Of a stretch of 64,000 nucleotides of DNA, positions 21,203 through 46,930 are shown one piece after another (within the stretch, counting starts at the first letter, position 1; every line of letters starts with the position of its first letter). Under the pieces are notes generated by a model. That model had not been told where the DNA came from and searched no databases. It was given only the letters and a program-made list of their open reading frames with translations. This DNA is from Candidatus Latescibacterota bacterium. Lineage in GTDB: Bacteria > Latescibacterota > UBA2968. The position numbers and the translations under genes are program-made. The stretch is from positions 5,683,751-5,747,750 of the forward strand of contig OZ242320.1 in assembly GCA_965208125.1 (NCBI GenBank), written 5' to 3'.

Positions 21203-21237
21203 TCAGGGATGGGGAATCTATTTTCCCCGTCCCCTGA
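21203..21237 (+). terminator. GC-rich hairpin after the peptide ORF
   Basis: TCAGGGATGGGGAA-TCTATT-TTCCCCGTCCCCTGA. Confidence 0.6.
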
Positions 21238-23203: not shown

Positions 23204-23205
23204 TT

Positions 23206-24213
23206 ATGCTGAGTATTTTTGCTATTGATCCCAAAATATGTGAAAATTTGGAGTGGTTTCGATATTGCACAGAGCACTGCCAGCCATCACAAGGACGTGT
23301 AATTGCAGATTTGCCATCCGGCCAGTGGTATGAAAGTGCAAATGCGATTCTTGATCAACACGTCCAAGAGCTTAATCTTCCCCCCATCAAAGTACGCAGT
23401 TTGAAAAGCTGCCTGAATATGGTGCGAGACCAACTGGTAGATCGACCAGGAACTGAGCAGACGAACTGGTATGATATTTCACAATTTTCTTGGATTACCG
23501 AAGTAGAGAAAGAGCATCAGCGAGAACGTTTTTCTGCTGTCATCAGCCCTGATTACGAGGGAACTGATGACACGGAGCTAAAGTATCATCCTGACGGTCT
23601 CAATAGAAGTGTAGAAGCATGGAATACGCCCAGTGGCATTGCAATCACGCGCAGTCCTGGAGAATTTGTAAATGCCATTTTGCCAATGCTTCGGGTTACA
23701 TCGAATATTCATTTTGTAGATGGATATTTTAACGTGGACGCTAATAGCTTGTTTACCGAAAATTATCAACAGATTATTGAAGACTTAGCCAAACACCGTA
23801 ACACACCAGATTATCCTTTTCCAGAACTGACAATTCATTGCTGCCCAGATCCAGATGAAATGACTGAGAAAGGTAAAAGAAATATTAAAAAGGGCCTTGA
23901 AAAGCATTATGCGGATTTAATACCAAGGGGGAAGTCTGTAACGGTTTTTGCGTGGCAGATAGAGGAAGATGTAGAAATAAAAAAAGGTAACCACCCTTTC
24001 CACAATCGCTATGTGCTGACTAAACATTGCGGCGTAATCGTGGGATATGGTACGGATAGTGCAAAAGCACCAACTGATGCACCAGACATCCTTCAGATTG
24101 TTGACCATGAAATATTTCTGAACTTGTGGAATCAAATTCAGGATGAGGAATTTCCTATGCTCTGCATTAAGAAGGAAAATAAGTTTGTGATTAATGGTAC
24201 TAAAGGTCCATGA
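23206..24213 (+). CDS. ATPase partner 2, hypothetical with PLD-like C-terminal domain
   Basis: FAIDP N-terminus like YAVTP of partner 1; IHFVDGYF and FHNRYVLT..GVIVGYGTD. Confidence 0.6.
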   Translation: MLSIFAIDPKICENLEWFRYCTEHCQPSQGRVIADLPSGQWYESANAILDQHVQELNLPPIKVRSLKSCLNMVRDQLVDRPGTEQTNWYDISQFSWITEVEKEHQRERFSAVISPDYEGTDDTELKYHPDGLNRSVEAWNTPSGIAITRSPGEFVNAILPMLRVTSNIHFVDGYFNVDANSLFTENYQQIIEDLAKHRNTPDYPFPELTIHCCPDPDEMTEKGKRNIKKGLEKHYADLIPRGKSVTVFAWQIEEDVEIKKGNHPFHNRYVLTKHCGVIVGYGTDSAKAPTDAPDILQIVDHEIFLNLWNQIQDEEFPMLCIKKENKFVINGTKGP

Positions 24214-24401
24214 TTAAAGGCGTATAATACGATACCACAAAAAAGAGACTCATCACGAACAATGGGCGGTAAATGTTCGAGGCAAGTCAAAGGTGTTGCA
24301 TGCACTACGCTATTACCACGCAATTTGTAATAACGAATTGTGGCCTTGATCCCGAGGAGGCTCATAGTTAGATTCAATGGTGATTCCCAAGAGGATGAGA
24401 C

Positions 24402-25613
24402 ATGAGCGATAACTACCACAACTATCAGTTGCTATTGGCAAAAGTAGCCCAACTTTACGAGAGGCATGGGATCGGACTTCCGGACCCATTCAATGTCTTC
24501 TCTTCGCTGAAAAATAAAAATGGGTACCTGAACGAGACTCTGCATTCACGGTTTCTTTGTGCACTGTTTGACTATAAGAAGCCGGGATATGAAACCAGAG
24601 AGAATCTGAAGGACTTCTTGCTACATATTGGCGTAAAGGATTTTGAACTATGTGGTGTAAGGGTCGAGCCGGAGTGCGACGGCATCGACATCCGAATCAC
24701 CAACGCTAACAAAAAGGCGCTGGCGATTGAAAACAAAAGCAATCCTAAGCGCGGGGATGAAGATAAGCAACTATGGAGGTGTTATCATACATTGAAAGGT
24801 CAGGGTTACAGAGACATAAAACTGCTGTACCTGACACCTGACGGCCATAAGCCTTCCGACAATAGCGTTGGTAATCTTGACCACAAGCGTATTAAATGCA
24901 TTTCCTACGAGGGTCTTATTCCTTGGTTAGAAAGTTGCCAAGAACGCGACGAAAACGAAACCGCGTTGCAGGATGCAGTCGCGCAATACCTACAGCTTGT
25001 CCGAGAGTTGGCAGGCACAGACGGCAGGGGGAAATATATGAGCGATTTAAAGGAACTTTGTCGGGAGGATAACAACTTTGTTCTTATCCGTGATTTGAGA
25101 GATGCTATACGTGAAGTAGAGAAAGAATTGCGAAAGGAAATATGGGACAAAATAGAATGTGAGCTAAAATCGAAAATTCAATACTTTCCTCCCGATAAAA
25201 AACGATATAAACAGGATAATAAGGGCCTATGCTACCAGTTGAGTGAATCCACCTCGCTCGAGGTTGTAGGCGACCCCACCATCTGGTTCGGGGTCCGTTG
25301 TTCTAAAAAGAAGTATAAAGACAAATATGACACGCTCAAAAATGCACTGGAGGATGTGAATGGTGAAAAACCACACGATGATTATCCTTTTTGGCAAAAG
25401 GTCGATAGATTGGAGGACCTCTCGCTGCTATTGAAAGATGCTGAGCGGCAGAAATATGCAAAAGAAACCGCACAGAAAATCGTCGAAAAAGGTTTGAAAG
25501 AAGTCTGGGAAGTTCTTGAAGACTTAGCTCTGGTGAATGCAATCAAAGAAGGAGAAAAAACAGAGCTTGTCCCCGAAGAACAGATATTTGAGATATTAGA
25601 AAGGATATCTTGA
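24402..25613 (+). CDS. PD-(D/E)XK nuclease family protein (PDDEXK_4-like) with antitoxin-like C-terminal tail
   Basis: FNVF, ETLHSRFL, IDIRI, AIENK, QLWRC, LYLTPDG; tail LEDLALVNAIKEGEKTELVPEEQIFEILE. Confidence 0.75.
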   Translation: MSDNYHNYQLLLAKVAQLYERHGIGLPDPFNVFSSLKNKNGYLNETLHSRFLCALFDYKKPGYETRENLKDFLLHIGVKDFELCGVRVEPECDGIDIRITNANKKALAIENKSNPKRGDEDKQLWRCYHTLKGQGYRDIKLLYLTPDGHKPSDNSVGNLDHKRIKCISYEGLIPWLESCQERDENETALQDAVAQYLQLVRELAGTDGRGKYMSDLKELCREDNNFVLIRDLRDAIREVEKELRKEIWDKIECELKSKIQYFPPDKKRYKQDNKGLCYQLSESTSLEVVGDPTIWFGVRCSKKKYKDKYDTLKNALEDVNGEKPHDDYPFWQKVDRLEDLSLLLKDAERQKYAKETAQKIVEKGLKEVWEVLEDLALVNAIKEGEKTELVPEEQIFEILERIS

Positions 25614-25616
25614 ATT

Positions 25617-25883
25617 TTGAAAGTCCTATTCAGAAACAGTTTTGGAAGAGATCTCAGACGTATCCGAAATCGATCTATTGGAGAGCGCGTCAAGGAAGCG
25701 ATAGAGCAAGTCAAGGAAGCAAGCGATCTTACAGAGATCAGTAATGTCCGAAAACTCCGTGGCGGCAGAAACCATTACCGCGTTCGGACCGGCGACTATA
25801 GGATTGGATTTCAATTCAACGAGGGCACCGTAATTTTCGTACGATGTTTGCCGCGCCGAGATTTTTACCAACACTTTCCCTGA
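25617..25883 (+). CDS. Type II toxin, RelE/ParE family
   Basis: 88 aa, basic; SFGRDLRRI, KLRG, YRVRTGDYRIG, RRDFY. Confidence 0.85.
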   Translation: MKVLFRNSFGRDLRRIRNRSIGERVKEAIEQVKEASDLTEISNVRKLRGGRNHYRVRTGDYRIGFQFNEGTVIFVRCLPRRDFYQHFP

Positions 25884-25986
25884 CCACCTCGCCTACCAAA
25901 TGCTCAAGTTCCTCCTGCATCTATTGCCCGCATCCGTCCCCTTCTATACCAATCCCCACTTCCACTTCTCAATCCATAATCGCCTT

Positions 25987-27519
25987 TTATCTGCGTCCAT
26001 CTGCGTAATCTGCGGATCCAAACGCCTTTTGCAAATACGTCAGATCGAGTTCGGGATAAACCGGGAATCGCTCGAGAAGATTGGCGATCCTCTGTTGGGC
26101 GTCTTCGAGCACACCATCCTGAATCCTGTATTGGACCTTGCTAAACTGGCCCGCACTTCTGCCCTTCGTGAACTTCAATGGCCGTGCATGGGTAAGCACA
26201 TTGCCCATGACTGCGCCGATCTCTCGCATCTCATCTGAACCCATGCCAAGCGTCGTAAGCGCCGGTGTCCCCACCCTGAGACCACTGGTGTACCATGGAC
26301 CGTTGGGATCAAAGGGAATGGTATTTCTATTCAGCGTAATCCCGGCATCGCGAAGCAGGGTTTCGGCCTGGCGACCCGTGAGATTAAAGGGGGTAACGTC
26401 GATTCGAAGCAGGTGATTGTCAGTACCCCCTGTGAGTACCGCGAGACCCGCGTCTATACACGCCTGTGCGAGAACCTGGGCATTATCGACAATACTGGCG
26501 GCATAAGCCCGAAATTCAGGCTTACTCGCCTCCTCAAACGCGACAGCTTTGGCTGCCATCACATGGGGCAGTGGACCACCGAGCACCATTGGGCAGCCTT
26601 TATCGACCTGTTCGGCAAATTCTTCCGTACACAAAACCATACCTCCCCTGGGGCCGCGCAGGGTCTTGTGTGTGGTTGTCGAAACGACATGGGCATGGGC
26701 AACCGGATCAAAATCACCTGCAAAAACTTTACCGGCCACCAATCCGGCAAAATGCGCCATATCCACCATAAAAACAGCCCCCACTTCATCGGCGATTTCC
26801 CGGAAAATGCGGAAATTAATTTTGCGCGGATAAGCACTATAACCCGCTAAAAGAATCAAAGGTTTGACGGTTTTGGCCTGGTCGCGGATTTCATCGTAGT
26901 CGATCAGGCCAGATTCTTTATTTACGGAGTACTCATGCGCCTCAAACATGCGCCCGGACACATTGATGCGATAGCCGTGCGTGAGATGTCCCCCGGATGA
27001 AAGATCCAGTCCCAGAAGCTTTTGATTGCCCAATTGTTTGCGAAGCGCGTCCCATGCTTCAGCCGAGAGATCAAATGGCGATTTTTTCCCCATTTTTTCG
27101 AGTGCAACATCTTGAACGCGCTCCGAAAGAATCGCCCAAAAAGCGACCATATTGGCATCTGCGCCCGAATGGGGTTGAACATAAGCGTGATCTGCACCAA
27201 AGAGATCGCACGCCAGTTTTACAGCCTGACTTTCAATCGCATCTACATTGTCACAACCGGCGTAAAAGCGGTGATCGGGAATCCCCTCGGCGTATTTGTC
27301 AGTCAGCAAATTGCCCATAGCCAGTTGCGTGGGCAAAGAACAATAATTCTCGCTCGCAATCATCTTGAGATTCGAACGCTGGTCGGCCAACTCGCTCACG
27401 ATATTTTTCGCCACATCGGGCGATACGGAGGCAACTTGCTCCAGCGCGGCCAAATAGGCGACAAAACCGGGATTTGGAGTGGGATTTTGAGACAGATAGT
27501 CGGCAAGAGGGCTGGACAT
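25987..27519 (-). CDS. glyA: Serine hydroxymethyltransferase
   Basis: [55 protein letters not shown]. Confidence 0.97.
25989..26017 (+). repeat. 29-bp direct repeat, right copy, within the glyA 3' end
   Basis: ATCTGCGTCCATCTGCGTAATCTGCGGAT; encodes the terminal SADYADGRR of GlyA on the minus strand. Confidence 0.7.
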
Positions 27520-33608: not shown

Positions 33609-33641
33609 GCTACCCTCCAATGCTAAAAATGCCTGTACCAT

Positions 33642-33779
33642 TTATAACCTATTTGTGGCATGTGTGCAAGGTGAAAGATATAAGAGACGCGGCAAAACAG
33701 GCTGGCACCATCCCGGCGCAATCGCAAATAACAGGAACATAACGAGCCAAACGGCTTGTCTTTTATTAAAGATATTCAT
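33642..33779 (-). pseudogene. lptD remnant (signal-peptide region joined to lptD downstream flank)
   Basis: 33689-33779 about 80/91 identical to 45127-45217; 33643-33679 30/37 identical to 42816-42852 (manual counts). Confidence 0.8.
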
Positions 33780-33917
33780 ATTTTCGTACAGGTTATCAAT
33801 CGCAATTCTCGACAAAGATTCGCAAAAATGGTAGTCCATGAGAACATCTGGGCCGCCCCGGTTCTACTCGCAGGGCGACTGATGATCCCCATCAGCCTGT
33901 ACTGAAAGAGAAAAGAG

Positions 33918-35114
33918 ATGAGTCGAGGAAAAAGCTTACTCCTGGCCAGTGCCATCCTTCTCATATCCTTGAGTGTTGCCTACCTTATGGTCTGGCTGAA
34001 ACCCGAGCCGGAAATCCGGCCTCTTACTTCTCGGGCACCTTTCGCAGCCACGGCTCCCGCGGTGGTCGGCACTGGTGCAATTCCCGTGTACGGGGCTGGG
34101 ACGGTTCGACCTGTTGCAGAGATAGATGTCGCTGCCGAAATCAATGGTAAGGTTGTTTGGGTAGATCCGGCCTTTCAGAGTGGCGGACGAGTCCGAAAAG
34201 GGCAGGTTCTCTTCCGCATTGATGACGCCGACTACCGCAACAGAGTTCAGCAAGCCCGCGCCAACGTGGCCGCGCAGCATGTCGCACTCCTCCGGGCGAA
34301 TGAAGAAGCTCAGATCGCACGCGCTGAGTACGCGCAATACAGACGTGGCCAAACAGATATAGCTGGGGCCAATCCCCTTGCGCTGTGGGAACCACAACTC
34401 GAGGCAGCCCGCGCCGCGGTGGTCAGAGATAGTGCTGTGCTCGCCGCTGCCGAGTTGGCTTTGGCACGTACAAAAGTCCGCGCGCCTTTCAGAGGCGTCG
34501 TGCAGGCAGAATCGATAGATATGGGGCAGTTCGTAGTGGCTGGTCAGAGTGTGGGGCGAATTTACGCGACCGACGCAGTAGAGGTGGTAGTTCCCCTCTC
34601 CGACGCCAACGCAGTTCTCATTCCCGGCCTATGGGATCTGGAAGCTGGCGACGGAAACAGGCGAGTCGGGGCCCGCATCATTGCTGAATACGGCGACAGA
34701 AGCTACACCTGGGAGGGCTATGTAGATCGAGCGGAAGCATCCCTGGACGAACAGACGCGCACCATCAACGTCATCGTACGCGTCCCAAATCCTTTTACAA
34801 GCGGCACCCGATTCGAAGCGGCAAGCGCGGATCCTGGCCCGCCCCTTCTCGTGGGCAAATTCGCAGAAGTGCGAATTGAGGGAATCATCCCAGACCAGTA
34901 CTTCATCCTGCGGCGATCAGCACTCAGACCGGGCAACGAGGTCTGGGCAGTGCGCGATGACTCATTATTGACCATCGTCCCGGTGCGCGTCCTTCAGCGT
35001 TCCGATGATAAGGTGTTCGTAACCGGCACGCTGAAAACCGGTCAAGCGGTCGTCATAGGCGGGATTCAGGTCGCAACCGAAGGCATGGTGGTGCGGATCG
35101 GAGATGATCCATGA
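33918..35114 (+). CDS. RND efflux periplasmic adaptor (MFP) subunit
   Basis: N-terminal TM, lipoyl halves (VAAEINGKV, VRAPFRGVV) flanking a coiled coil. Confidence 0.9.
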   Translation: MSRGKSLLLASAILLISLSVAYLMVWLKPEPEIRPLTSRAPFAATAPAVVGTGAIPVYGAGTVRPVAEIDVAAEINGKVVWVDPAFQSGGRVRKGQVLFRIDDADYRNRVQQARANVAAQHVALLRANEEAQIARAEYAQYRRGQTDIAGANPLALWEPQLEAARAAVVRDSAVLAAAELALARTKVRAPFRGVVQAESIDMGQFVVAGQSVGRIYATDAVEVVVPLSDANAVLIPGLWDLEAGDGNRRVGARIIAEYGDRSYTWEGYVDRAEASLDEQTRTINVIVRVPNPFTSGTRFEAASADPGPPLLVGKFAEVRIEGIIPDQYFILRRSALRPGNEVWAVRDDSLLTIVPVRVLQRSDDKVFVTGTLKTGQAVVIGGIQVATEGMVVRIGDDP

Positions 35115-38100
35115 ACCGGGAAGAAGGTTCCGCACGGGAACAGCGTGGTCCCATAGCTTATATGGCTGGTAACAGTGTAGCCGCCAATCTACTGATGTGG
35201 GCCATTATCGCCGCCGGGCTGGTGTCGCTGACCGGACTCGACCGGGAAGCGTGGCCCACCACTCCCTTCTACCATATTGAAGTGTCGATGGCCTATCCCG
35301 GCGCCACACCAGAAGAGGTGGAGGAGTCCATCGTCGTCAAGATCGAAGACCAGGTCAGTGGATTGGATGACGTGAAGGCGGTCAAGTCCGTATCGGCCCC
35401 GGGTATGGCATCCGTGCGGGTTCAAATGGATTTCGATACGGACATGGCTCGGGCGTTGAACGATATCGAGTCTGCCGTCAATCGCATACAGTCTTTCCCG
35501 GCCAGTGCCGAACGTCCCAGTTTCAGGGAGATGACCAACCGCATGAGCATGATGCGGCTCATTGTTTATGGCGATGTGCCCGAGCGTGCGCTGAAGGAAT
35601 TGGCGTATCAGATCGAAGATGAACTCACAACACTCCCCTCCGTGTCCCAGGTCGAAGTCAGTGGTATTCGGAAATACGAGATCTCTATCGAGGTACCGCT
35701 TCATCGGCTAAGAGCACTTGGACTCACACTCACCGATATAGCCAACACCATTCGTCGCAGTTCCCTGGACTTATCTGCCGGCAGTATCAATACCCGGGAA
35801 TCCCAGGTGCGGGTCCGGACTCTCGGTCAGAACTACGACCAAAAGGATTTCGAAGAGATCGTCCTTCTCAGTGGTCGTGACGGCACGGTCCTGCGCCTTG
35901 GAGATATCGCCGAGGTTCGCGACGGTTTTCAGGAAGCCGACCTGATCATCCGGCACCAGAACCATCCCGGGGTATTCGTGGAGATCTACCGCGCCGATGG
36001 TGAGCAAGTGATGGATGTCGCCACGACCGTCCGACAGCACCTGGCAAACGAAGTGATCCCTTCCCTGCCGGACGGTGTGGGCGTCACCATGTGGAATGAC
36101 GAATCCCAGGTCTATGAGGAACGCGCCGATCTTCTCCTCAAGAACGGGATCCTGGGCCTGTTGCTGGTGCTGATCGCACTCAGCCTGTTTCTCGAAATCC
36201 GGCTCGCGCTTTGGGTTGCCGTGGGCCTCGCCGTTTCGGGAATCGGCGCCCTCGCCATCATGATGGCATTCGACGTGGCGATCAACACCATCAGCCTGTT
36301 TTCCTTTGTCCTCGCCATAGGAATCATCGTCGACGATGCCATCGTCGTGGCCGAGCACATTCAATACGAACGCAAGCGGGGAACACCCGGGGTCACGGCC
36401 GCGATCCGCGGCGTACGGCGGATCAAGGTGCCGTTGACGTTCGCAGTTCTGACGTCGGTGGTGGCCTTCGTCCCGTTGCTGTTCATTCCCGGCGGCGTCG
36501 GTGAGGTGTGGCGGGCCCTGCCGATCATCATGATCGCCATGCTGCTGGTTTCCCTGGTCGAATCGCTGCTGGTGCTGCCCAACCACCTGTCCCACCTGCA
36601 CGGCCCGGAGTGGGTGCCGGCCAATGCCTTCGACCGGTTCTTCGCGCGGCTCCAGGGGCGCGTTGACGCGCTGCTGAACAGGTTCGTCCAAGGCCCGCTG
36701 GATCGGGCCCTGCAGTTCGCCACCGACCAGCCCGCGGTGACGATGTCGGGGGCAGTGGGAATGCTCGTGCTGAGCATCTCCCTGTTGCCCGCGGGGATCG
36801 TTCCTACCACGCTGGCCGCTGACGTGGAGGGGGATATCGCGACGGTCGTCCTGGAGATGCCCGATGGGGCGACCGCTCCGAGGACGTACGAAGTGGCGCA
36901 GGAACTGGAGGCCGCAGGCCACCGGGTCATCGAACGACTCTCGCGCGGCCGGCCCGGGGATGCGCCACCGCTACTGACCGGCGTAACGGTGACCGTCGGA
37001 CAGGGCTCGAGACTCGCGGGCGGGCTCAATCCGGAGCCGACCCTCAATCCGCAAGCCAACATCGCCACCATTGAGTTCAAACTCCTGGGCGCCCAACAGA
37101 GAGAAATCTCCACCGGAGAGGTCGTGCAGGCATGGCGGGAGGAAGTGGGGGTACTGCCCTACGTACGCGGCATCACCTTCAGCGGCGAGGTCTTCGACTT
37201 GGGCAACCCGGTGGAGGCCGTGTTGTCGCATCCGGACCCGGAGCGCCTTGTCCGGATTGCAGACTCCGTGGTGGATGGACTCCGCGGGGTGGGAGGCGTC
37301 TATGACATACGTTCGGATCACTCCCCGGGCATCCCGGAGGTTCAACTGGAGCTGCGGCCGGAAGCGCGAACCCTCGGTCTCACACTCCACGACCTGGCCG
37401 GGCAGGCACGGGCGGCGTTCTTCGGCGCAGAGGCCGTTCGGGTGCAGCGCGACCGGGAAGAGGTCCGGGTCTATGTGCGCCTGCCCTCCGATGAACGAAA
37501 ATCCATCACCGATGTCGAAGGATACCTGCTCCGTACGCCGGGCGGGGCCGAGGTCCCGGTCATGAGTGTGGCCTCCCTGAACCCGGGGGTGTCGCCGCCG
37601 GCCATTCGGCGGAAGGACGGCCAGCGCGTCGTCACGGTCACTGCGGACGTGGATGCTTCGGTGATTTCAGGCGACGAAGCCAACGACATCCTGGCCAATT
37701 CGATCCTCGCGGATCTGACCGCCCTGCACCCGGACCTGACATACAGCTTCGGAGGGGAACAACAACAGCAGCTCGAATCCCTGGATGCGCTGTATCGCGG
37801 ATTTGCGATTGCCATGCTCCTGATCTTCGCGCTGCTCGCCATCCCCCTCCGATCCTATACAAAGCCGTTCATCATCATGGCCGTCATCCCCTTCGGGTTC
37901 ATCGGAGTGATCCTGGGTCACTGGGTCCTGGGAGTAGCCCTGAGTGCCGTATCTTTCATGGGTATCTTCGGCCTGAGTGGGGTGGTCGTGAACGATTCCC
38001 TGGTCATGATCGATTTCATCGATCAGAGAATCGGGGAAGGCACCTTGGCAAGGACGGCGATCGTGGAGGGCGCCAAGGGGCGCTTTCGTCCGATCATGCT

Positions 38101-38305
38101 CACTTCCGTGACTACGTTCCTCGGCTTCACTCCCCTTATTCTGGAACGTGCCATCCAAGCCCAGTTCCTGATCCCCTTTGCCGCCTCGCTCGGTTGCGGC
38201 ATTCTCTTTACTACGGCTATACTCATGATGATCGTTCCCGCACTTTACACCATCCATCTGCGTCTGATTGCTTCGCGGGGCCGTTCCGGCGCTGGTACCG
38301 GGTAA
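35111..38305 (+). CDS. RND transporter permease (AcrB/AcrD/AcrF family)
   Basis: 1064 aa; YPGATPEEVE, GIIVDDAIVVAE, GVVVNDSLV, RFRPIMLTS. Confidence 0.93.
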   Translation: MNREEGSAREQRGPIAYMAGNSVAANLLMWAIIAAGLVSLTGLDREAWPTTPFYHIEVSMAYPGATPEEVEESIVVKIEDQVSGLDDVKAVKSVSAPGMASVRVQMDFDTDMARALNDIESAVNRIQSFPASAERPSFREMTNRMSMMRLIVYGDVPERALKELAYQIEDELTTLPSVSQVEVSGIRKYEISIEVPLHRLRALGLTLTDIANTIRRSSLDLSAGSINTRESQVRVRTLGQNYDQKDFEEIVLLSGRDGTVLRLGDIAEVRDGFQEADLIIRHQNHPGVFVEIYRADGEQVMDVATTVRQHLANEVIPSLPDGVGVTMWNDESQVYEERADLLLKNGILGLLLVLIALSLFLEIRLALWVAVGLAVSGIGALAIMMAFDVAINTISLFSFVLAIGIIVDDAIVVAEHIQYERKRGTPGVTAAIRGVRRIKVPLTFAVLTSVVAFVPLLFIPGGVGEVWRALPIIMIAMLLVSLVESLLVLPNHLSHLHGPEWVPANAFDRFFARLQGRVDALLNRFVQGPLDRALQFATDQPAVTMSGAVGMLVLSISLLPAGIVPTTLAADVEGDIATVVLEMPDGATAPRTYEVAQELEAAGHRVIERLSRGRPGDAPPLLTGVTVTVGQGSRLAGGLNPEPTLNPQANIATIEFKLLGAQQREISTGEVVQAWREEVGVLPYVRGITFSGEVFDLGNPVEAVLSHPDPERLVRIADSVVDGLRGVGGVYDIRSDHSPGIPEVQLELRPEARTLGLTLHDLAGQARAAFFGAEAVRVQRDREEVRVYVRLPSDERKSITDVEGYLLRTPGGAEVPVMSVASLNPGVSPPAIRRKDGQRVVTVTADVDASVISGDEANDILANSILADLTALHPDLTYSFGGEQQQQLESLDALYRGFAIAMLLIFALLAIPLRSYTKPFIIMAVIPFGFIGVILGHWVLGVALSAVSFMGIFGLSGVVVNDSLVMIDFIDQRIGEGTLARTAIVEGAKGRFRPIMLTSVTTFLGFTPLILERAIQAQFLIPFAASLGCGILFTTAILMMIVPALYTIHLRLIASRGRSGAGTG

Positions 38306-38336
38306 TGCACTTCATGATGCAGGGAGGCAGAAACCG

Positions 38337-40370
38337 ATGGCTAATACTACCGAGGGTTTGACGACCCAATCGCTAAGTCTCACCGAAGAGCTCATCCTGA
38401 TGCTCCTCAACGAGGAGACTGGCTACTTTCACCAGGTACCCGGCTGGCATTTGAACTGCGCCGTGGTCGGTGCCGTGCTCGCAGAGCTTTCACTCAGATC
38501 GCGCATCGACACGGACCTGGAATCCCTATTCCTCGTGGACGAGTCGGAAACGGGAAGACCTACCCTGGACCCCATTCTGAAAGAAATCGCAGCCGAATCT
38601 GTTCAACGGAACGCCCAGTACTGGATCGAACGGCTTGCTCCCCGTGCGGAATCGATCATTGATTCGGTTCTGGACCGCCTGGTTGACCTGAAGATCCTGG
38701 AATATCACGACGGTGAATTCTGGACACTGGCTCCTACCGTCTGGCGTGGGGAACTGTCCAGCAAGTCGGAAGAGGGCACTGCAGGCCAGTTCATAAAAAC
38801 GCGGATCAGCAGGATCATCTTCACCGACGAGATTCCCGATCCGAGAGATGTCATCATTATCTGCCTCGTCAATACCTGCGACGTCTTTCGTTTCATATTC
38901 CAGCTCGACGACGAGGCGGAGGAGCGCATCGAGTTCATCTGCAAGATGGATCTGATCGGCCGCTCCCTGGCCTCTGCGGTCTCTCAGAACCTCGCCGGCC
39001 CAGCCCTTCGACGTCCTGCCCTTGCCAGGAAAATTCCGACGGTTTCGCTGCCCAAGCTGCTGCTGAACCCGCATAGTCGAGACGGCAACCTGAACGCGCT
39101 CTTCGGGAACCTTGCGGAGGAGTACGGTCCGGTGTTCCAGATCCGCCCTCCCTTCTCGAAGCCCATGATCTTCCTGGCCGGACTCGAGACAAACCGCTGG
39201 GTGCACAAGCGCGGGCGCATGTACCTGAGAGCCAGAGACTACTTCAGCGACTTCGAGAAGGTCTACGGCGCGTCCGGCGTCCTGCCCGCCCTGGACGGAG
39301 CCGATCACTTCCGGCTTCGCCAGTCCCTGTCGCCCGCCTATTCTGCCGTGAGGCTGGGAGGGCAGCTAGACCAGCTCTACAATCAGGGGCGCAAATACAT
39401 GGCGAGCTTGACGGTTGGGGACTCATACCGCGCCACGTCCATGTGCCGGGAGATGGTGAACGCCCAGCTCTCCCCACTGTTCATCGGCGTCGATACCCAG
39501 GACCTCATGGACGACCTGATGGCGTACAAGGAACGGGCCCTCAGCGTGCACGTCGCCAAGCTCCTGCCCAGATTCACGCTGAACACCCCGGGCATGAGAC
39601 GTCGGGCGAAAGCCCTGGACACACTGATGCAGCGGGTCCAGGACATCCATACCCCCGCCCAACGGGCGGACAGCCCGCGGGACCTGGTGGACGATTACCT
39701 CAGCCTGCACGCGAGCGACCCGCAGTTTCTCCCGGAGTCCAACCTGCTGTTCTCCTTTTCCGCGGCCTTGATTGCCAGCGTGTACCTCGGCGATACGTTC
39801 AGCCTCGTAGTCTACGCCATGGCGTCGCAGCCCGACCTCTACGCCAGAATCCAGGCCGAAGCAGATGCCCTGTTCGCCAAGGGAGACCCCGAGAGAGAGG
39901 ATTTCACCCCCGCCAACATTGACGTTACCCACCGCTTCCTCATGGAGTGCATGCGCATGTACCCGATCGTCTCCATGTCCATTCGGAACGTGATGAATAC
40001 GTGCGTGGTCGAGGACTACGAGCTGCCCATGGGGGAACGGATCCACATCGCCATGACCGCCACGCATTACATGAGCGAGGTCTTTCCCGACCCCTACAAG
40101 TTCGACATCGACCGCTACCTGCCGTCGCGCCATGAACACCGAAGCCCCGGGTACGCCCCGTACGGGCTGGGCACGCACAAGTGTCTCGGCACCCGGTGGA
40201 TGGAGCTGCACCTGGCGGCCAACTTGCTGATGCTGGCGCACTACTTCACGATTGAGGTGTCGCCAGCGCAGTACAAGCATAAGCTCCGTTTCAGTCCGTT
40301 CCCGTCGCTGAAACCGAGCAAGAAGCTGAAGTTCCGCATCTCCCAGCAGAGACGGGAGCTGTTCACCTGA
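38337..40370 (+). CDS. GPP34/GOLPH3-like domain fused to cytochrome P450
   Basis: N-terminal LSLTEELILMLL..GAVLAEL..RI (GPP34-like); P450 ECMR (ExxR), FDIDRY, YGLGTHKCLG heme Cys; GGGAGG RBS before ATG 38337. Confidence 0.85.
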   Translation: MANTTEGLTTQSLSLTEELILMLLNEETGYFHQVPGWHLNCAVVGAVLAELSLRSRIDTDLESLFLVDESETGRPTLDPILKEIAAESVQRNAQYWIERLAPRAESIIDSVLDRLVDLKILEYHDGEFWTLAPTVWRGELSSKSEEGTAGQFIKTRISRIIFTDEIPDPRDVIIICLVNTCDVFRFIFQLDDEAEERIEFICKMDLIGRSLASAVSQNLAGPALRRPALARKIPTVSLPKLLLNPHSRDGNLNALFGNLAEEYGPVFQIRPPFSKPMIFLAGLETNRWVHKRGRMYLRARDYFSDFEKVYGASGVLPALDGADHFRLRQSLSPAYSAVRLGGQLDQLYNQGRKYMASLTVGDSYRATSMCREMVNAQLSPLFIGVDTQDLMDDLMAYKERALSVHVAKLLPRFTLNTPGMRRRAKALDTLMQRVQDIHTPAQRADSPRDLVDDYLSLHASDPQFLPESNLLFSFSAALIASVYLGDTFSLVVYAMASQPDLYARIQAEADALFAKGDPEREDFTPANIDVTHRFLMECMRMYPIVSMSIRNVMNTCVVEDYELPMGERIHIAMTATHYMSEVFPDPYKFDIDRYLPSRHEHRSPGYAPYGLGTHKCLGTRWMELHLAANLLMLAHYFTIEVSPAQYKHKLRFSPFPSLKPSKKLKFRISQQRRELFT

Positions 40371-40409
40371 CGACTTGCTCCTTGTGGAGCCAGGGGAAAA
40401 CACCACGAA

Positions 40410-41444
40410 ATGCGACTGTGCAAACTGTCAAGAGAGTTGAGAGATGCGTACCGGGGATCGGGCGTCGCACGTCGAGTGCAGCACTTCGACGGCTGGCTCG
40501 ACCGGGCGGTGCTGGAGCCCGGTGGCGCGGGCGGGTACGATCACACGGAAACAGTGAAAGACTATTACGACCTTTGTAGCGGGTTCATGGTGTGGGGCTG
40601 GGGCCAGTCCCTGCACTTCGCACCCCTCACGCCTCATGAGAGTCTGGAGGAGTCCAAGGTCCGGCATCAGCGGCTGATGATTTCCAAGTTGGAGCTGCAA
40701 CAGGGTATGACGGTGGTCGACGTTGGTTGTGGAGTCGGCGCCCCCATGCGCCGCGTCGTCCGTGAGGCTGGTGTCAGGGTTGTAGGAATCAACATCAATG
40801 AGATCCAGTTGGAAGAGGCGAAGAGGTTGAACGCCGAGGCGGGGCTTGATCACATGGTCGATTTCGAGACGTGCAGCTTCATGGACATGAGCACCATTGA
40901 GGACGACACCTTCGACCGGGGTTATGCCATAGAGTCAACGTGCCATGCACCGGACAAGCAACGCGCCTTCGAAGAGGTATTCCGCGTGCTGAAACCCGGT
41001 GCCCTGTTCTGGGGGCAGGAAATGTGTCTGACGGGCAAGTTCGATCCGAAGGACGACCGGCATCGGGCCATCAAGGAGGATCTCAGGCGCGGCATTGCGC
41101 TGAGGGACATCGCCACCTTCGGGGAAGTGAATCACGCGCTCGGAGCCACGGGATTCCAAGTCATGGAAGGGATGGACCGGGCGATCCAGGAAGGACCCTC
41201 CACACCTTGGTATCAACCCATGGAGAGTCGCCATGGGACGGTCGGAAATGCCTTGCGCAGGCTTCCGTGGGGCCGTAAAGCGGTCATCACAGGATCGAAG
41301 CTGGCTGAAGTACTGCGGCTCTTTCCGAAGGGTTCCGCGGAAGTCATCCGACTCCTAGATCGGACCGCGGAGGCTTATATCGCGGGCGGCAAGGCGGGTA
41401 TCTTTACGCCGCTGTACTGTTTCTTGGCTCGCAAGCCTCTTTAG
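40410..41444 (+). CDS. Sterol 24-C-methyltransferase-like SAM-dependent methyltransferase
   Basis: YYD..WGWGQSLHFA (SMT region I), VDVGCGVGAP, YAIESTCHAP, VLKPG, GIFTPLY..ARKP. Confidence 0.85.
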   Translation: MRLCKLSRELRDAYRGSGVARRVQHFDGWLDRAVLEPGGAGGYDHTETVKDYYDLCSGFMVWGWGQSLHFAPLTPHESLEESKVRHQRLMISKLELQQGMTVVDVGCGVGAPMRRVVREAGVRVVGININEIQLEEAKRLNAEAGLDHMVDFETCSFMDMSTIEDDTFDRGYAIESTCHAPDKQRAFEEVFRVLKPGALFWGQEMCLTGKFDPKDDRHRAIKEDLRRGIALRDIATFGEVNHALGATGFQVMEGMDRAIQEGPSTPWYQPMESRHGTVGNALRRLPWGRKAVITGSKLAEVLRLFPKGSAEVIRLLDRTAEAYIAGGKAGIFTPLYCFLARKPL

Positions 41445-41635
41445 GCCCGCTTGGCGCGCCTTCGCGCGGGACCCTCAAGTCAGGGCCTCTCCGGAACCGC
41501 CAGCCGTATATGATGCGCCCGTAATAGTTGAACGAACGCTTTGCTGCGGGATCGTCAAAATGGCCATTCGCCGCGGCATTGTCCCTGTCTCCCTGTTGCT
41601 TTAGCCTCTTATCTTGCGCCCTCATCGGCTACCGC

Positions 41636-42730
41636 CTAATCAGAGATCGAATCCCCACTTCCCTTCGCAATCGTCGGATCGGGATAGAACTGCCGGCAAT
41701 AGCGGCGGTATTTCCCTATAGGTCCGTCTGCCCGACACAGCCGGGGGGGAGTTCGATACCGCTTCTGTTCCCAGATCACCATATCCTGCAGGACATCCCG
41801 TTTCTGTTGTGACATCAAAATGCGATTCATCAGCCTGTGGCGCAGCTTCATCGGCAGAAATCCCAGACCTGAGATGAATCGCCGGGGCCTGCGGATTTCC
41901 CGCAGTTGGCTGACCAGTGCAAGATCGATGAGGGTGCCGTCAATGGGCGTTGCGAGTACCCACAACCTCGCATCCATACCGATCGTCTTCTCGTGGATTT
42001 CGACGAAGGAGTAGCCCAGTCCATAGACATGGGTGATAGCCGAAGGTTCGTACACGAGGTCCTTTACACCCAGGATCCTGCGAACGCGTTTGAAGTCGAA
42101 GCAACTCTTCAAATAAGCACCATCTACCGTTACCGAACCGATCGGAGTCACATTGTCGTAACCATGCACATAGCGCAGGTGTCCCAGATCCACAGAGTTC
42201 TCAGTTGTTTCCTGGGGATGTCCACGGAATCGGAGTATGTTGAATCTCAGTTCACACCACTCTTGTCCAGTGGCAGGCTCAGTCGGCAACTCCCACTGCG
42301 GCGGTCTGCCTCCACTCCCGAACCAGGCGAAGACCATGCCGAGTATCTCTCGCGTCTCATATACTTTCAGTTTCGCGGCTCTGGGTGCCGGAGCATTCGG
42401 AGTCGCAACGCATTGGCCAGTCACATCGTACTCAAACCCGTGAAATGGACAGACGAGGCGACCGTTGCACACCTGGCCGCCGACCTCCGGCCCCATGTGC
42501 GAGCCCAGGTGCGGACATACCGCGTCGGCCACGCAGACGCGACCCGTATCGTCGCACCAGACGACGATTTCCTCGCCCAACCACGTCTTCTCGATCAGTT
42601 TCTCTCGCAGAATGGATTCGCGGCTTGCGACGAAATACCACCCCTCGGGGAACGCTGGTAGCGCATCAGCGCCATTCATGACTGGTCGATCAGTACTTCT
42701 GAGTAAGTCTGCTGATTCCGTAAAAGACAT
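41636..42730 (-). CDS. Rieske [2Fe-2S] oxygenase, Neverland/DAF-36/KshA-like
   Basis: FPEGWY, CPHLG, CPFHG, ENSVDLGHLRYVH, C-terminal DMVIWEQK...DGPIGKYRRYCRQFY. Confidence 0.85.
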   Translation of the reverse strand: MSFTESADLLRSTDRPVMNGADALPAFPEGWYFVASRESILREKLIEKTWLGEEIVVWCDDTGRVCVADAVCPHLGSHMGPEVGGQVCNGRLVCPFHGFEYDVTGQCVATPNAPAPRAAKLKVYETREILGMVFAWFGSGGRPPQWELPTEPATGQEWCELRFNILRFRGHPQETTENSVDLGHLRYVHGYDNVTPIGSVTVDGAYLKSCFDFKRVRRILGVKDLVYEPSAITHVYGLGYSFVEIHEKTIGMDARLWVLATPIDGTLIDLALVSQLREIRRPRRFISGLGFLPMKLRHRLMNRILMSQQKRDVLQDMVIWEQKRYRTPPRLCRADGPIGKYRRYCRQFYPDPTIAKGSGDSISD

Positions 42731-42853
42731 AAAGATCTCATTCCTGGAAGTTTCCCAAAGACGCCCTGAACAGCGCCGATGTCACGAGATATTCCCGTGC
42801 AAAATTACCAAAATCTATAAGCTATTTACTGCAGGTGGACAAGGTGAAAGATT

Positions 42854-45217
42854 TTATATCCCAAACCCTCCGCGTCGGTGCTCAAATTTTATTTGCGGGA
42901 TGTCCTTAATATTGATCTTAAAAAAGAAACCCTTATTAAAACCTGCGGGATACCACGAAAACCGAGCTTCCCAACAGTGGAGATCGCGGTAAAGCGATAG
43001 GCTTTGCGCCGAGATTTTGGCATCGGGCAGAACATCAATATTGATCGAATAGTCAATTCTTATGAATTGGCGAGGATTGATGCCAATATCTGCTTTGATC
43101 CAGGATGTTTTGCTCGTTGTATTGCCGAATCGCCGCATCGCAATATAATGAGAGAGATTGAATCGCCACGGCTGGCTGGCACCGCCAAAATCGCTGTACA
43201 AATCGCGCTCAAAGCCAAAATCTGCGCCATATCCCCCCCTGTATCCACCGCCATATCCAGCATCATATCCAGTATCATACCCAGGATCATATCCATCGGG
43301 AAGAGCGGACTGGATAACCATATTGTCTCGTCCACCTTGACCACCGGAAAAACGAAAATTGGAGGTAATCGTCAGGTTCTGCAGACGCGGATGCAAAAGC
43401 GACCGCTGGCCTGTGCTGTCATAGAGCGTATGGGTCATCGCAATGCGGACATCCACGCGACGATCGGGTTTGAGAGACGCGCTGGCGCGAAGCGGACGCC
43501 ATTTTTGTCTCGGCGCGTCAAAATCGTATCCCGTTGACAGATTGAGCGTCGCCAGAGTAAAACGACGCACATCGTCGTCGCGCTGGGTTTTGAGTTCAAA
43601 AGTATTGCCGATATTAAAATTTATGCTGCGTCTGGCATCATCCCATCTGCGATTGCCCCCAAAACCCATAGTCCCCTGAAATATGCTTCCCGATTGGTTG
43701 TAATTGAAATTCATCCGGGGCTGAAAGCGATGCCGAATGCCGCGTAACCGGCCGATTTGCGGTTGGAAAATGCCGTATAATGTCGTGCCCGAAGTCAGTG
43801 TCGCATTGTAAGACGTGCGTCGGGTTGTCGAATCGGTATCGCTATATATAAACTCTTCGCCAAAATTAAAGCTCGGTGTGAGATTGAGCCACCCCATAGG
43901 ACGGTGTTGGCTGTTGACTGTGACGCGGTTTTGAAGAGAGACGCGCTCCGTATTGGGCGCTGGATCGGGGTTGCGCGCAAAATTATTGGACAGCGTGCTC
44001 GAAAAACCGTAGTAAAAGGCGCGATACCACGGTCCTGTAACAGATGTCATTTCATTGTTGCCAAATATGCGGCGTCTATTTTGTCTAAAGCTGAGACGGG
44101 GAAAACCTTGAAAGCTATTGTTTTTTGTCCTCAGGTCGCGGTAATACGTCAAACTGCCATCAATGCTGCGTCCGGATTCTGTCCAACGTTTGTCAAAAGA
44201 AAAGCTGGACCTCAGTTGCCGATTGAGATAGCGATAAAGATTATTGCTATTGCGTCGGTCAAAGTTAGTACTGGTCGAAAACTGCCCGCTCCCCCTGATA
44301 TTGGTCGTGGCGTTGATGCGTTGCTGATGTTGCAAATTGAAGCGCCAATTGTGGGCAGTACCATCACCTGAAGTGTCGTGGTCGTATCCAATGTCCATTG
44401 AGCCGCTGAACCGATTGCGCCTGGCATAGGCAAATCGCGATTCGAGCAAAAATCCACCGCGCTCGCGCAAAGTGCTCTTAACCGTGGCATCCCAGTATTC
44501 ACTCGGCGCAAAATAATACCCCACATTGTGAACAAAAATGCCATCGCGGCTGTTGCTACCCACGCCCGGCGTGAGCAAGCCCGATTGCCGCCCGCGCTTG
44601 ACTGGAAAAACAAAAAAGGGAACCCAGAAAACGGGAATCGGGCCAATGCGAAAAGTAACAGATCGCCCAATCGCTTTGTCATTTTGCAAAATACGCACAT
44701 TTTTGCACAAAAAATCGTAGTGTACATGGTCGCGGTCACAGGTGCTTAAAGAGAGATCCAGAGCATTCAGCGCTTCTTGACCATCAAGCGCGATGTGGGC
44801 ACCGCGATAGTGCTTGCGCTGGTGTGACGCGCGTCCCTCTCGCACACTACCGCGTTCTGTATCCAGGTTATAAACCATGTACTCACCCAAAATTTTCTCG
44901 CTACCGCGGGTAAATTGGGGCGGTCCCACGATTTGTGCCCCGGTGGAATCGGGCAATGCGCGTGCTGTGACATGCCGGGTATTTTGATCGTACGTAATAT
45001 GACCTGCTTTGAGCTGCAAGTCGCGATAGCGCAAGGAGGCATTGCCGATCAATTCGACGCGCCTGGTCTGTACGTGATAAACGACCTCATCAGCGTCAAA
45101 TGTTATAGAATCGCCAGCGGCTTTCTGCGGCAAAACGGGTTGGCACCATCCCGGCGTAATCGCAAATAACAGGAACAAAACGAGCCACATGGCTTGTGTT
45201 TTATTACAAGTCTTCAT
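42854..45217 (-). CDS. lptD: LPS-assembly protein LptD
   Basis: Signal peptide, OstA-like N-terminal domain, STCD, RQSGLLTP, LYRDLHCWE, beta-barrel. Confidence 0.85.
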   Translation of the reverse strand: MKTCNKTQAMWLVLFLLFAITPGWCQPVLPQKAAGDSITFDADEVVYHVQTRRVELIGNASLRYRDLQLKAGHITYDQNTRHVTARALPDSTGAQIVGPPQFTRGSEKILGEYMVYNLDTERGSVREGRASHQRKHYRGAHIALDGQEALNALDLSLSTCDRDHVHYDFLCKNVRILQNDKAIGRSVTFRIGPIPVFWVPFFVFPVKRGRQSGLLTPGVGSNSRDGIFVHNVGYYFAPSEYWDATVKSTLRERGGFLLESRFAYARRNRFSGSMDIGYDHDTSGDGTAHNWRFNLQHQQRINATTNIRGSGQFSTSTNFDRRNSNNLYRYLNRQLRSSFSFDKRWTESGRSIDGSLTYYRDLRTKNNSFQGFPRLSFRQNRRRIFGNNEMTSVTGPWYRAFYYGFSSTLSNNFARNPDPAPNTERVSLQNRVTVNSQHRPMGWLNLTPSFNFGEEFIYSDTDSTTRRTSYNATLTSGTTLYGIFQPQIGRLRGIRHRFQPRMNFNYNQSGSIFQGTMGFGGNRRWDDARRSINFNIGNTFELKTQRDDDVRRFTLATLNLSTGYDFDAPRQKWRPLRASASLKPDRRVDVRIAMTHTLYDSTGQRSLLHPRLQNLTITSNFRFSGGQGGRDNMVIQSALPDGYDPGYDTGYDAGYGGGYRGGYGADFGFERDLYSDFGGASQPWRFNLSHYIAMRRFGNTTSKTSWIKADIGINPRQFIRIDYSINIDVLPDAKISAQSLSLYRDLHCWEARFSWYPAGFNKGFFFKINIKDIPQIKFEHRRGGFGI

Positions 45218-45450
45218 AATTTTAAAGTGTGTTGTAGATTATGTGGAGTACAAACGTAAATTCGGGATTGGGAAAAGTCAACAGAGGTCCCACAGCGGAA
45301 TCCACTGGATCAATGCTTTGCTTCACGTCCTGTACAAACAAAGGAATATCCCGGTTGTTCCGTTTTATTCTTGATACATTTTGAAGAAACCTATATTTTT
45401 TAACCTCTTGACATATTATGGACAGTCGCACAATTATGAAGCGACTGCGG

Positions 45451-45537
45451 GCGGACGTGGTGGAATTGGCAGACACGCCAGATTTAGGATCTGGTGGGGT
45501 AAAACCCGTGGGGGTTCGAGTCCCCCCGTCCGCACCA
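45451..45537 (+). tRNA. tRNA-Leu(TAG)
   Basis: GCGGACG/CGTCCGC acceptor stem, CCAGA-TTTAGGA-TCTGG anticodon arm, long variable arm, GGTTCGAGTCC, encoded CCA. Confidence 0.96.
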
Positions 45538-45658
45538 AAAACAATCAGACGATTCGAGGCTCCACTCTTCAAATCGCTGGCGCGAAAACTCCCTTTGGGG
45601 AGCTTTTTTATTTTTTTATATATCCAATGACAAAAAACAACATGAAAGTGAGGAATTT

Positions 45659-46930
45659 GTGGCAGCATTTTTGAATGACGATCAAGTCCGAAAAATTCGA
45701 GCGGAATTCGGCTCCCCTGTTTATGTTTACGACCAGCGCACGCTGGAAGCACAGGCCGAGGCTGTGTTAAATTTTCCCAATGCCTTTGGATTGACCGCAC
45801 GCTATGCGATGAAAGCATTGCCCAACAGCACCGTAATTCGCATCTTGACGCAAAAGGGATTGCACATCGACGCCAGCAGTGGATATGAAGCCGAGCGCGC
45901 CATGCGAGCCGGTGTGCCTGGCCCGTACATCATGCTTACGGCACAGCAGATACCCAAAAATCTGAAACACCTGATCGAGCAAGGCGTGATCTTTAACGCG
46001 TGTTCCCTGAATCAACTGCGAACATTTGGCGACATGTTCCCCGGGCGATCCCTCTCCCTGCGTATCAATCCCGGCATGGGATCCGGGCACAGCAAGCGCA
46101 CCAATGTGGGGGGACCTGCGGCGAGTTTTGGTATCTGGCATGAATATATCTCCGACGTCCATAAAATTTGCAAACAGCGCGATTTGACAATAACGACCAT
46201 GCACACGCATATCGGATCGGGCAGCGATCCCGAAGTGTGGGAGCGCGTCGCATTGATGTCATTGAAAATTTGCGTTGGATTTGAAAACACCACCACATTG
46301 AGCCTGGGGGGCGGGTACAAGATCGGGCGCCTGCCGGGCGAAGTATCCACGGATTTGCAGGTGATTGGGCAACACATGGCCGAAGCCTTTGAAATGACCG
46401 CGAGACAAACCGGACGCGCGTTGCGCCTGGAAGTAGAACCCGGCACATATCTCGTCGCAAATGCCGGCGCAATCGTCGCAACGGCAATTGATGTGGTAGA
46501 TACCGGGAAAGACGGGTACAAATTTATCAAAACAGATACCGGAATGACCGAAGTGATTCGCCCGAGCATGTACGGGGCACAACATCCCATCACCGTGGTA
46601 TCTGCCGAAGGAGAAGAACGCGGAGTTGACGAATATATTGTCGTGGGACATTGTTGTGAAAGCGGCGACGTATTAACCCCTGCGCCCGACGATCCCGAAG
46701 GGCTGCTACCCCGGCTATTGACAAAAACAAAAGCAGGAGACGCCGTGGTCATCGGTGGAGCGGGCGCGTATTGTGCGGGCATGTCATCTAAAAATTACAA
46801 CTCCTTTCCCGAAGCGGCCGAAGTATTATTGGACAGAGACGGCGCATTTCACTTAATTCGGAAACGCCAGACATTGGATCAGGTCCTGGAAAATGAAATT
46901 GTACCGGATTTTTTGACCTCTAAGAGCTAA
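45659..46930 (+). CDS. lysA: Diaminopimelate decarboxylase
   Basis: YAMKA, DASS, HTHIGSG, LGGG, EPG, CCESGD, GAY, NYNS. Confidence 0.92.
   Translation: MAAFLNDDQVRKIRAEFGSPVYVYDQRTLEAQAEAVLNFPNAFGLTARYAMKALPNSTVIRILTQKGLHIDASSGYEAERAMRAGVPGPYIMLTAQQIPKNLKHLIEQGVIFNACSLNQLRTFGDMFPGRSLSLRINPGMGSGHSKRTNVGGPAASFGIWHEYISDVHKICKQRDLTITTMHTHIGSGSDPEVWERVALMSLKICVGFENTTTLSLGGGYKIGRLPGEVSTDLQVIGQHMAEAFEMTARQTGRALRLEVEPGTYLVANAGAIVATAIDVVDTGKDGYKFIKTDTGMTEVIRPSMYGAQHPITVVSAEGEERGVDEYIVVGHCCESGDVLTPAPDDPEGLLPRLLTKTKAGDAVVIGGAGAYCAGMSSKNYNSFPEAAEVLLDRDGAFHLIRKRQTLDQVLENEIVPDFLTSKS

Follow-up and report, generated by a model that had tools for sequence, protein, structure and literature searches.

What use does a bacterium without recognizable sterol synthesis genes have for a set of enzymes from sterol-modifying families? 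The question is raised by the window analysed here, a stretch of 64,000 nucleotides from a Candidatus Latescibacterota bacterium (assembly GCA_965208125.1, contig OZ242320.1, positions 5,683,751 to 5,747,750), which is the end of a genome assembled as one contig of 5,747,750 bases (completeness 96.4%). At 33918-42730 the window carries five genes that a first examination of the letters alone, here called the sequence-only reading, had described as a horizontally acquired cassette for tailoring host or dietary sterols. We find that these genes form an intact 9.2-kb block, which entered the chromosome between dtd and lptD and is kept by purifying selection, and that its three enzymes move between phyla together with one of two kinds of transporter of the resistance-nodulation-division (RND) superfamily. 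The cassette would then be a module for lipid tailoring and export that sponge-associated bacteria acquired horizontally and that most likely acts on sterols its carriers do not make themselves, a reading to which we give about an even chance.

Domain calls are Pfam profile searches of translated open reading frames (ORFs), and subfamilies were checked with NCBIfam models and their own cut-offs; the ORF list and Pfam bear out the positions and domains of all five genes as first described. A periplasmic adaptor of the membrane fusion protein (MFP) type is encoded on the plus strand at 33918-35114 (HlyD_3 50 bits, also HlyD_D23; TIGR01730 147.9 bits against a cut-off of 94.9), followed on the same strand by an AcrB-type (HAE1) RND permease at 35111-38305, whose ACR_tran match of 530 bits spans profile positions 9-1019 of 1021. 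Also on the plus strand lies a fusion of a GPP34 domain to a cytochrome P450 (38268-40370; 700 amino acids, with GPP34 at 100 bits over residues 38-239 and p450 at 119 bits over residues 445-687), which has the architecture of the 'GPP34_L' type and whose true start is likely the ATG at 38337. The next plus-strand gene, at 40410-41444, encodes a variant enzyme resembling sterol methyltransferases (SMTs), dependent on S-adenosylmethionine (SAM), with class I methyltransferase domains (Methyltransf_11, 64 bits) followed by Sterol_MT_C (56.5 bits, cut-off 21.7, profile positions 4-65 of 66). Convergent to these, on the minus strand at 41636-42730, is a Rieske non-haem iron oxygenase of the KshA/Neverland type (Rieske 59.9 bits; KshA_C, PF19298, 81.1 bits). 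The genome holds no other gene matching Sterol_MT_C and no other matching KshA_C. The catalytic motifs of both oxygenases are intact, namely the P450 haem cysteine loop (residues 632-641) and ExxR (at 560), and the Rieske cluster motif (residues 72-97) with the iron site D181, H184 and H189.

Housekeeping genes flank the cassette: to its left lie priA, a helix-turn-helix gene, maf and dtd, to its right lptD. We compared the locus with five members of the genus that lack the SMT gene (L089, L090, L091, L092, L093). In three of them (L089, L090, L092) dtd and lptD are about 40-65 bp apart, so that window positions ~33680-42851 represent a 9.2-kb insert relative to these empty sites; in L093 the locus is rearranged. 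A 40-nt direct repeat brackets the insert in two copies that are 80% identical and 9173 bp apart, the left one (33640-33679) overlapping the start of dtd and the right one (42813-42852) lying just ahead of the lptD stop codon, while each of the three empty sites has a single copy. Just inside the left edge, at 33689-33784, is a 96-nt duplicate of the 5' end of lptD, 88% identical to 45127-45222 and corresponding to lptD codons ~5-36 by blastn and tblastn. Together, the duplicate and the repeat suggest that the insert arrived, or was rearranged, with DNA flanking lptD. The block is also GC-rich, as had been noted from the letters, at ~60% over a background of ~50%, with 1-kb bins at 34001-42000 ranging from 0.56 to 0.65 against 0.48-0.54 in the flanks at 29-34 kb and 42-48 kb. 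In the genus, the variant SMT gene is present in 8 of 21 genomes, the source genome included. Horizontal acquisition, an early claim about this DNA, is thus backed by the GC shift, the empty sites, the repeat and the patchy presence within the genus, as well as by the unsaturated synonymous divergence (dS) described below.

The sequence-only reading had staked its proposal on the genes occurring together elsewhere, and they do. A homolog scan, restricted to one genome per species, gave at least 600 pattern-matched stretches, of which at least 551 encode a relative of the SMT; the locus statistics that follow concern the best 80 of these relatives, with phyla assigned from record titles. In these 80 loci, many of them on closed chromosomes, the SMT is 75-97% identical to that of the window, and the titles cover at least 10 phylum-level groups, including Latescibacterota, Gemmatimonadota/Longimicrobiales, Dehalococcoidia/Chloroflexota, Nitrospirales, Nitrospinota, Acidobacteriota, Binatia, Rhodothermales, Opitutales and Actinomycetes. 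The GPP34-P450 fusion accompanies the SMT at 60% identity or more in 63 loci and as a subfamily of 40-46% identity in 12 more, the Rieske gene is found in 66, and all three enzymes stand together in 64 (in 51 of 61 if only loci with complete flanks of 10 kb are counted), in a gene order that varies from phylum to phylum. An AcrB-type RND permease, 72-96% identical, is present in 38 loci and is replaced in 20 others by a transporter with MMPL, Patched or sterol-sensing domains; 60 of the 80 have one or the other. More variable companions are a gene of the FAD amine-oxidase family (30/80) and a TolC-like OEP gene upstream of the MFP gene (13/80), both missing from the window cassette, and a second SMT paralog (8/80). 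The cassette also varies within the genus: at L003 and L006 the MFP gene is lacking and dtd lies directly upstream of the RND gene.

A tree of 81 variant SMTs (MAFFT and FastTree, no rows dropped, three canonical paralogs as outgroup) places them in a clade of their own, with a long stem (0.97) and a median root-to-tip depth within the clade of 0.37; all pairs are at least 69% identical, and identity to the canonical paralogs is 38-41%. The phylum label changes 17 times on this tree, where the minimum possible is 9 and shuffled labels give a mean of 42, with 36 as the lowest of 500 shuffles. Compared with closed Longimicrobiales and Gemmatimonadota chromosomes, that is, with records titled as another phylum, the RND, P450 and SMT genes have an unsaturated dS of 0.45-0.64, the Rieske gene ~1.1-1.2 and the MFP gene ~3 (2-3 against other clades). 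MFP identity is likewise 54-62% outside the genus and 86-89% among genus-mates. Since the MFP and Rieske genes are far more diverged than the other three, the history of the cassette appears mosaic. Each of the five genes has a ratio of nonsynonymous to synonymous divergence (dN/dS) of 0.11-0.32 in every comparison, the RND gene one of 0.115-0.184.

The statement that no squalene epoxidase (SE) or oxidosqualene cyclase (OSC) accompanies the cassette, first made for the window, holds for the entire genome, in which PF13243, PF13249 and PF08491 each have no match. For ring-degradation genes the check was an indirect one, the cassette gene being the sole KshA_C match of the genome. The same PF13243 search does find OSC-type frames in 4 of 46 other carriers (G011, G020, G022, G023), as frames of ~1,160-1,270 amino acids with cyclase matches of 185-191 bits; that in G020 (locus L037) is a confirmed SE-OSC fusion. 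No OSC was found in the remaining 42 of the 46. Cyclases were counted as full-length at 370 bits or more to PF13243, SE-OSC fusions scoring lower, at those 185-191 bits. Ten of the 46 carriers hold 11 full-length cyclases, all of the squalene-hopene type (TIGR01507 600-791 bits against 225-293 bits for the OSC model, cut-off 851), and HpnH adjoins both of the Dehalococcoidia cyclases and HpnC one of them. Among 41 relatives from the window's order, 17 have an SMT-family gene, 14 of the variant type and 3 only a 43%-identical paralog, and all 17 lack a full-length cyclase; the sole such match (657 amino acids) is in a genome without SMT. Canonical-type SMT paralogs, 42-43% identical to the window SMT, occur in the sister-genus genomes G073, G076, G079 and G081; as these have no full-length cyclase, possession of an SMT without sterol synthesis is not confined to the variant clade. 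Two further markers were of no help: PF01073 (3-beta-hydroxysteroid dehydrogenase) has 26 matches in the genome and also matches in all 14 control genomes, and PF01222 (ERG4/ERG24) has no match in the genome and none in any control either, so that its absence is not established. The genome, without squalene-hopene or oxidosqualene cyclase, has a complete HpnC-HpnD-HpnE operon at L103 5921-9086 (G000:C1 ~1239.9-1243.1 kb).

The position of the cassette in some other genomes also links it to sterols. A cyclase-like ORF directly adjoins it in five of the 80 loci (L034, L036, L037, L048, L050). The three that were classified (L037 121-3579, L048 4360-8022 and L050 2181-5621; ~1,150-1,220 amino acids) are of the OSC type, with 720-737 bits to TIGR03463 against 264-277 bits to the squalene-hopene cyclase model. 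In all three the N-terminal half matches FAD-hydroxylase models, and PF08491 (squalene epoxidase), run on and matched in L048 and L050, gives 79-89 bits. Each therefore appears to be a single ORF in which squalene epoxidase is fused to OSC, with the proviso that the ORFs were called mechanically and may hide a missed stop or frameshift. In L048 the order of genes is CYP51, SE-OSC fusion, canonical SMT paralog, Rieske oxygenase, variant SMT and GPP34-P450, the CYP51 matching solved CYP51 structures (6mcw) at E 1e-100 and the canonical SMT matching Sterol_MT_C at 80 bits. The cassette thus resembles the final, tailoring section of a sterol pathway whose synthesis section is missing from most carriers.

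The sterol-family signals within the cassette are Sterol_MT_C, KshA_C and, as the best PDB matches of the P450, weak ones to CYP51. On the assumption that sterols are the substrate, a host or neighbouring sterol-making symbionts would supply them, and they would partition into the bacterial membrane, where the GPP34 domain may hold the P450 at the membrane or at the lipid. The P450 and the KshA-type Rieske oxygenase would hydroxylate or desaturate the nucleus or the side chain, drawing on redox partners encoded elsewhere, and the variant methyltransferase would transfer a methyl group to an olefin that is not one of the usual delta-24 substrates. The MFP and AcrB-type pump could then shift the product from the inner membrane toward the outer membrane or the exterior, in the service of envelope remodelling, a host signal or detoxification. 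Uptake of host sterols and export of the products, both part of the sequence-only reading, are inferred.

Several observations weigh against this reading. The genome has a route to squalene, with HpnC (329 bits), HpnD (314 bits) and HpnE (399 bits) all above their cut-offs, and a SQS_PSY gene is present in 46 of 46 carriers. The loci adjacent to synthesis genes are only 5 of 80, all titled Nitrospira or Nitrospirales. The window contains neither a system for sterol uptake nor a redox partner nor an outer-membrane factor. One of the SMT-negative genus-mates, L091 (G050), has the MFP, the RND permease, a diverged fusion (74% identical) and the Rieske oxygenase, that is, the cassette with the SMT gene absent. 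AcrB-type pumps are generalists, and NCBIfam assigns the window permease to no specific family, RND_permease_2 giving 426 bits, below the cut-off of 1250. The cassette P450 is about as similar to taxadiene hydroxylase and CYP120 as it is to CYP51. As to habitat and activity, the reading can draw on the published confinement of GPP34-P450 proteins to sponge symbionts (PMC11706023) and on RNA libraries; the libraries, however, show presence and do not prove transcription, and DNA carry-over or other carriers in the same communities could account for the matches. Nineteen runs from six studies contain part of the stretch, the habitat evidence leaving out those with less than 0.2 of the sampled words whose contigs were not compared. 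Assembled contigs were compared for four RNA-library runs, each from a different study and two bearing the label sponge metagenome. These contigs cover the MFP, RND, P450 and SMT genes with an identity of 93-100%, a match of 361 nt to the P450 gene, for instance, having 0 differences and one of 371 nt to the SMT gene 2; the Rieske gene is barely covered, and dtd and lptD thinly, although contigs of this kind cannot show absence.

The methyltransferase itself belongs among these points. Functional SMTs have been reported to share 25 conserved residues, including T78 and Region I, 84-GWGXXFHF-91, and of 11 SMTs without activity on desmosterol and 24-methylenecholesterol, 7 deviate at positions of this kind; the authors regard deviating enzymes as unlikely to carry out C-24 alkylation, though they may require different sterol substrates (10.64898/2025.12.19.695621). 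With residue numbers mapped by offset from motif anchors, the window SMT deviates at three of the 25 (T78S, F89L and G132A), and at positions 81-83 it has M-V-W where five canonical paralogs have (Y/F)-E-(Y/F). The Region I motif is thus broken at F89, G84, W85, G86, H90 and F91 being kept. G132A is peculiar to the window sequence or its lineage, as the other six variant SMTs compared keep G132. The rest of the SAM motif, 125-DXGXGXXGP-133, is retained, as are G147, Q154, D189, E195, G217, G268, W286, G333, L341, G352, F357 and P359. Because the enzyme departs from the residues of functional SMTs, C-24 alkylation is doubtful, and the early suggestion that the cassette matters for C-24-alkyl sterane biomarkers is weakened accordingly. 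Its NCBIfam matches lie far below their cut-offs, that to sarcosine N-methyltransferase, for example, at 69 bits against 550.

More specific identities fit neither the oxygenases nor the pump. CYP51 is rejected for the P450, since its best PDB matches, to CYP51, reach only E 9e-18 and 67 bits over residues 420-674, against E 1e-100 for the true CYP51 in L048; its NCBIfam matches are far below cut-off (pentalenene oxygenase, for example, 63 bits against 800), and a protein atlas search with the P450 domain gave only generic 'cytochrome P450' clusters and no lead to a family. For the Rieske protein the best PDB matches are KshA structures (E 3e-23), limited to residues 19-189, the nearest atlas clusters with a name are auto-named cholesterol 7-desaturase, and SdmA is rejected (NF052579 30.6 bits, cut-off 600). 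The window pump has the ACR_tran architecture and is hence not of the HpnN/BstA (HAE3/MMPL) type; its full-length permease and adjacent MFP would suit a tripartite HAE1 system, of which the cassette has no OEP component. For the sterol-type substrate of the sequence-only reading speak three sterol-linked enzyme families and the five loci beside a cyclase-like ORF; against it, the SMT is atypical, the P450 is not CYP51, the Rieske protein is not SdmA, and squalene is available. As a whole, that reading has partial support.

That availability leads to an alternative in which no host lipid is needed and the substrate of the cassette is an acyclic isoprenoid from the cell itself, squalene made by HpnCDE being the most plausible. 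The SMT-like enzyme would methylate the terminal isopropylidene, both oxygenases would oxidise the chain, and the pump would place the product in the envelope. SMT-like triterpene methyltransferases of the alga Botryococcus act on squalene, the remodelled Region I would suit an acceptor other than the standard sterols, the three Hpn proteins pass their cut-offs in a genome without a cyclase, and a SQS_PSY gene in every one of the carriers means that an endogenous acyclic triterpene is always available. SQS_PSY, however, also matches in 8 of the 14 control genomes. HpnE is above its cut-off in 38 of the 41 relatives (40 of which have no full-length cyclase), including all 21 genomes of the genus, and since just 8 of these 21 have the variant SMT, the distribution of squalene synthesis does not follow that of the cassette. 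The characterised oxygenases with KshA_C are, moreover, enzymes of the steroid nucleus, and the cyclase-like ORFs beside five cassettes, joined in L048 by CYP51 and a canonical SMT, point to the chemistry of cyclised sterols. We consider the tailoring of squalene unlikely.

Pairing tailoring enzymes with an efflux-type AcrB/MFP system, and in 13 of the 80 loci with a TolC-like OEP, would also befit a resistance island for detoxification, which modifies and then expels bioactive terpenoids or steroids of the host, sponge defence compounds among them. The spread across phyla and the patchy presence resemble such islands, and the fusion has been described as restricted to sponge symbionts (PMC11706023). 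C-methylation by an SMT-family enzyme would not be a usual step of detoxification, however; in 20 of the 80 loci the transporter is instead of the MMPL/sterol-sensing type, whose NCBIfam matches, all below cut-offs, are to HAE3 and HpnN-like lipid-placement models, and the adjacency to de novo sterol synthesis in loci titled Nitrospira or Nitrospirales suggests the extension of a pathway. Detoxification seems to us decidedly improbable. The same publication on the fusion (Microbiome 2025) reports, from 20 sponge-symbiotic phyla, that the GPP34 family is enriched in sponge symbionts, that GPP34 with P450, which makes up 656 of 663 long forms, is confined to them, and that the fusion had a single origin; it notes that eukaryotic GPP34 binds phosphatidylinositol 4-phosphate (PI4P) and proposes a PI4P-mediated evasion of phagosomes by symbionts. 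On that account the fusion would be a PI4P-binding factor that disturbs phagosome maturation in the host, its cassette neighbours being unrelated or loosely connected, and the four GPP34 genes of our genome, two short forms and two P450 fusions, can be counted in its favour. Against it, 75 of the 80 loci have the fusion together with the variant SMT and 64 have it with both SMT and Rieske, despite differing gene orders, and both P450s of the genome are GPP34 fusions sited among tailoring enzymes. The haem loop and ExxR are intact, the translation from the ATG at 38337 has no obvious signal peptide as judged by eye, and a working P450 would need cytoplasmic electron donors. A role confined to phagosome modulation is, in our estimation, highly improbable.

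The preferred reading, a tailoring and export module for sterols obtained from elsewhere, finds partial counterparts in published systems. Steroid gene clusters with ERG24, CYP51 and LSS in metagenome-assembled genomes (MAGs) from Ircinia sponges (Kelly et al., 2022; PMC9531527) overlap with the cassette in many phyla and resemble it in their horizontal transfer, in purifying selection and in an enrichment of SMT1/ERG6; as described there, those clusters comprise the synthesis core (cyclase, CYP51, reductase), whereas the window has only a tailoring and transport set. Bacterial SMTs have been shown to be functional (Brown et al., 2023; PMC10070321), and those in this and the more recent study (10.64898/2025.12.19.695621) have the same Pfam architecture, MAG sources (many from sponges) and a bacterial context. 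The reported SMTs lie in de novo sterol clusters, 13 of 24 with OSC, in contrast to the cassette described here, which is mostly without OSC, and the main texts of the two studies make no mention of a P450, Rieske oxygenase or transporter. The GPP34_L proteins of sponge symbionts are identical to the window fusion in domain architecture; where PMC11706023 proposes PI4P binding and phagosome modulation, the fusion is here one step of a conserved cassette of enzymes and transporter, and the words 'sterol' and 'methyltransferase' are absent from the main text of that paper. KshA, Neverland/DAF-36 and SdmA have Rieske and KshA_C domains with intact metal motifs in common with the window protein, but its setting differs, with neither a KshB-type reductase nor genes of steroid catabolism next to it. 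BstA/BstB/BstC of Methylococcus capsulatus (PMC10942540) and HpnN likewise represent an RND-superfamily transporter genetically tied to cyclic-triterpenoid chemistry; the window pump is AcrB-type (HAE1) with an MFP rather than HAE3/MMPL as in BstA and HpnN, and no BstB- or BstC-like binding proteins were seen, none having been sought.

If the preferred reading is right, most carriers modify rather than make sterols, SMT homologs in metagenomes need to be recounted as evidence for bacterial sterol production or as sources of C-24-alkyl steranes, and the GPP34-P450 fusion gains a concrete biochemical role. The cassette joins three literatures, on bacterial SMTs and sterane biomarkers, on steroid clusters of sponge microbiomes and on GPP34 as a symbiosis factor; our literature search, which did not cover supplements, found no paper joining sterol methyltransferase and GPP34. 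The cassette enzymes are small, intact and cloneable. One may go further and propose that sponge bacteria of at least 10 phyla turn sterols of the host or of other symbionts into unconventional methylated and oxygenated sterols and export them by means of a mobile module, a claim that we hold to be rather doubtful. Were it true, part of the sterol diversity of sponges would be a joint product of host and symbiont, possibly with side-chain methylation at positions other than C-24 or with polyhydroxylated forms, and the so-called 'symbiosis factor' GPP34 would turn out to be an enzyme of sterol chemistry, not an effector directed at phagosomes.

The second GPP34-P450 fusion of the genome (655 amino acids, 35% identical to that of the cassette) is found at L104 6004-12734 (G000:C1 ~995.0-1001.7 kb), directly followed by a sulfotransferase gene and preceded by genes for a PhyH dioxygenase, a GFO/IDH/MocA oxidoreductase and a class I methyltransferase. 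As these neighbours recur in none of the 80 SMT loci, we regard it as a separate locus. Sulfated sponge sterols exist, and on the broader proposal above the presence of a fusion beside a sulfotransferase would extend the idea of a module to sulfated lipids.

Two features of the window lie outside the cassette. A tRNA-Leu (anticodon tag) at 45451-45537 on the plus strand accounts for a peak of depth in all four RNA runs; it is situated inside a 198-amino-acid ORF (45222-45818) that has no Pfam match and is probably spurious. Upstream of the cassette, at window positions 17001-26000, runs a stretch of low GC content (0.36-0.44 against ~0.50).

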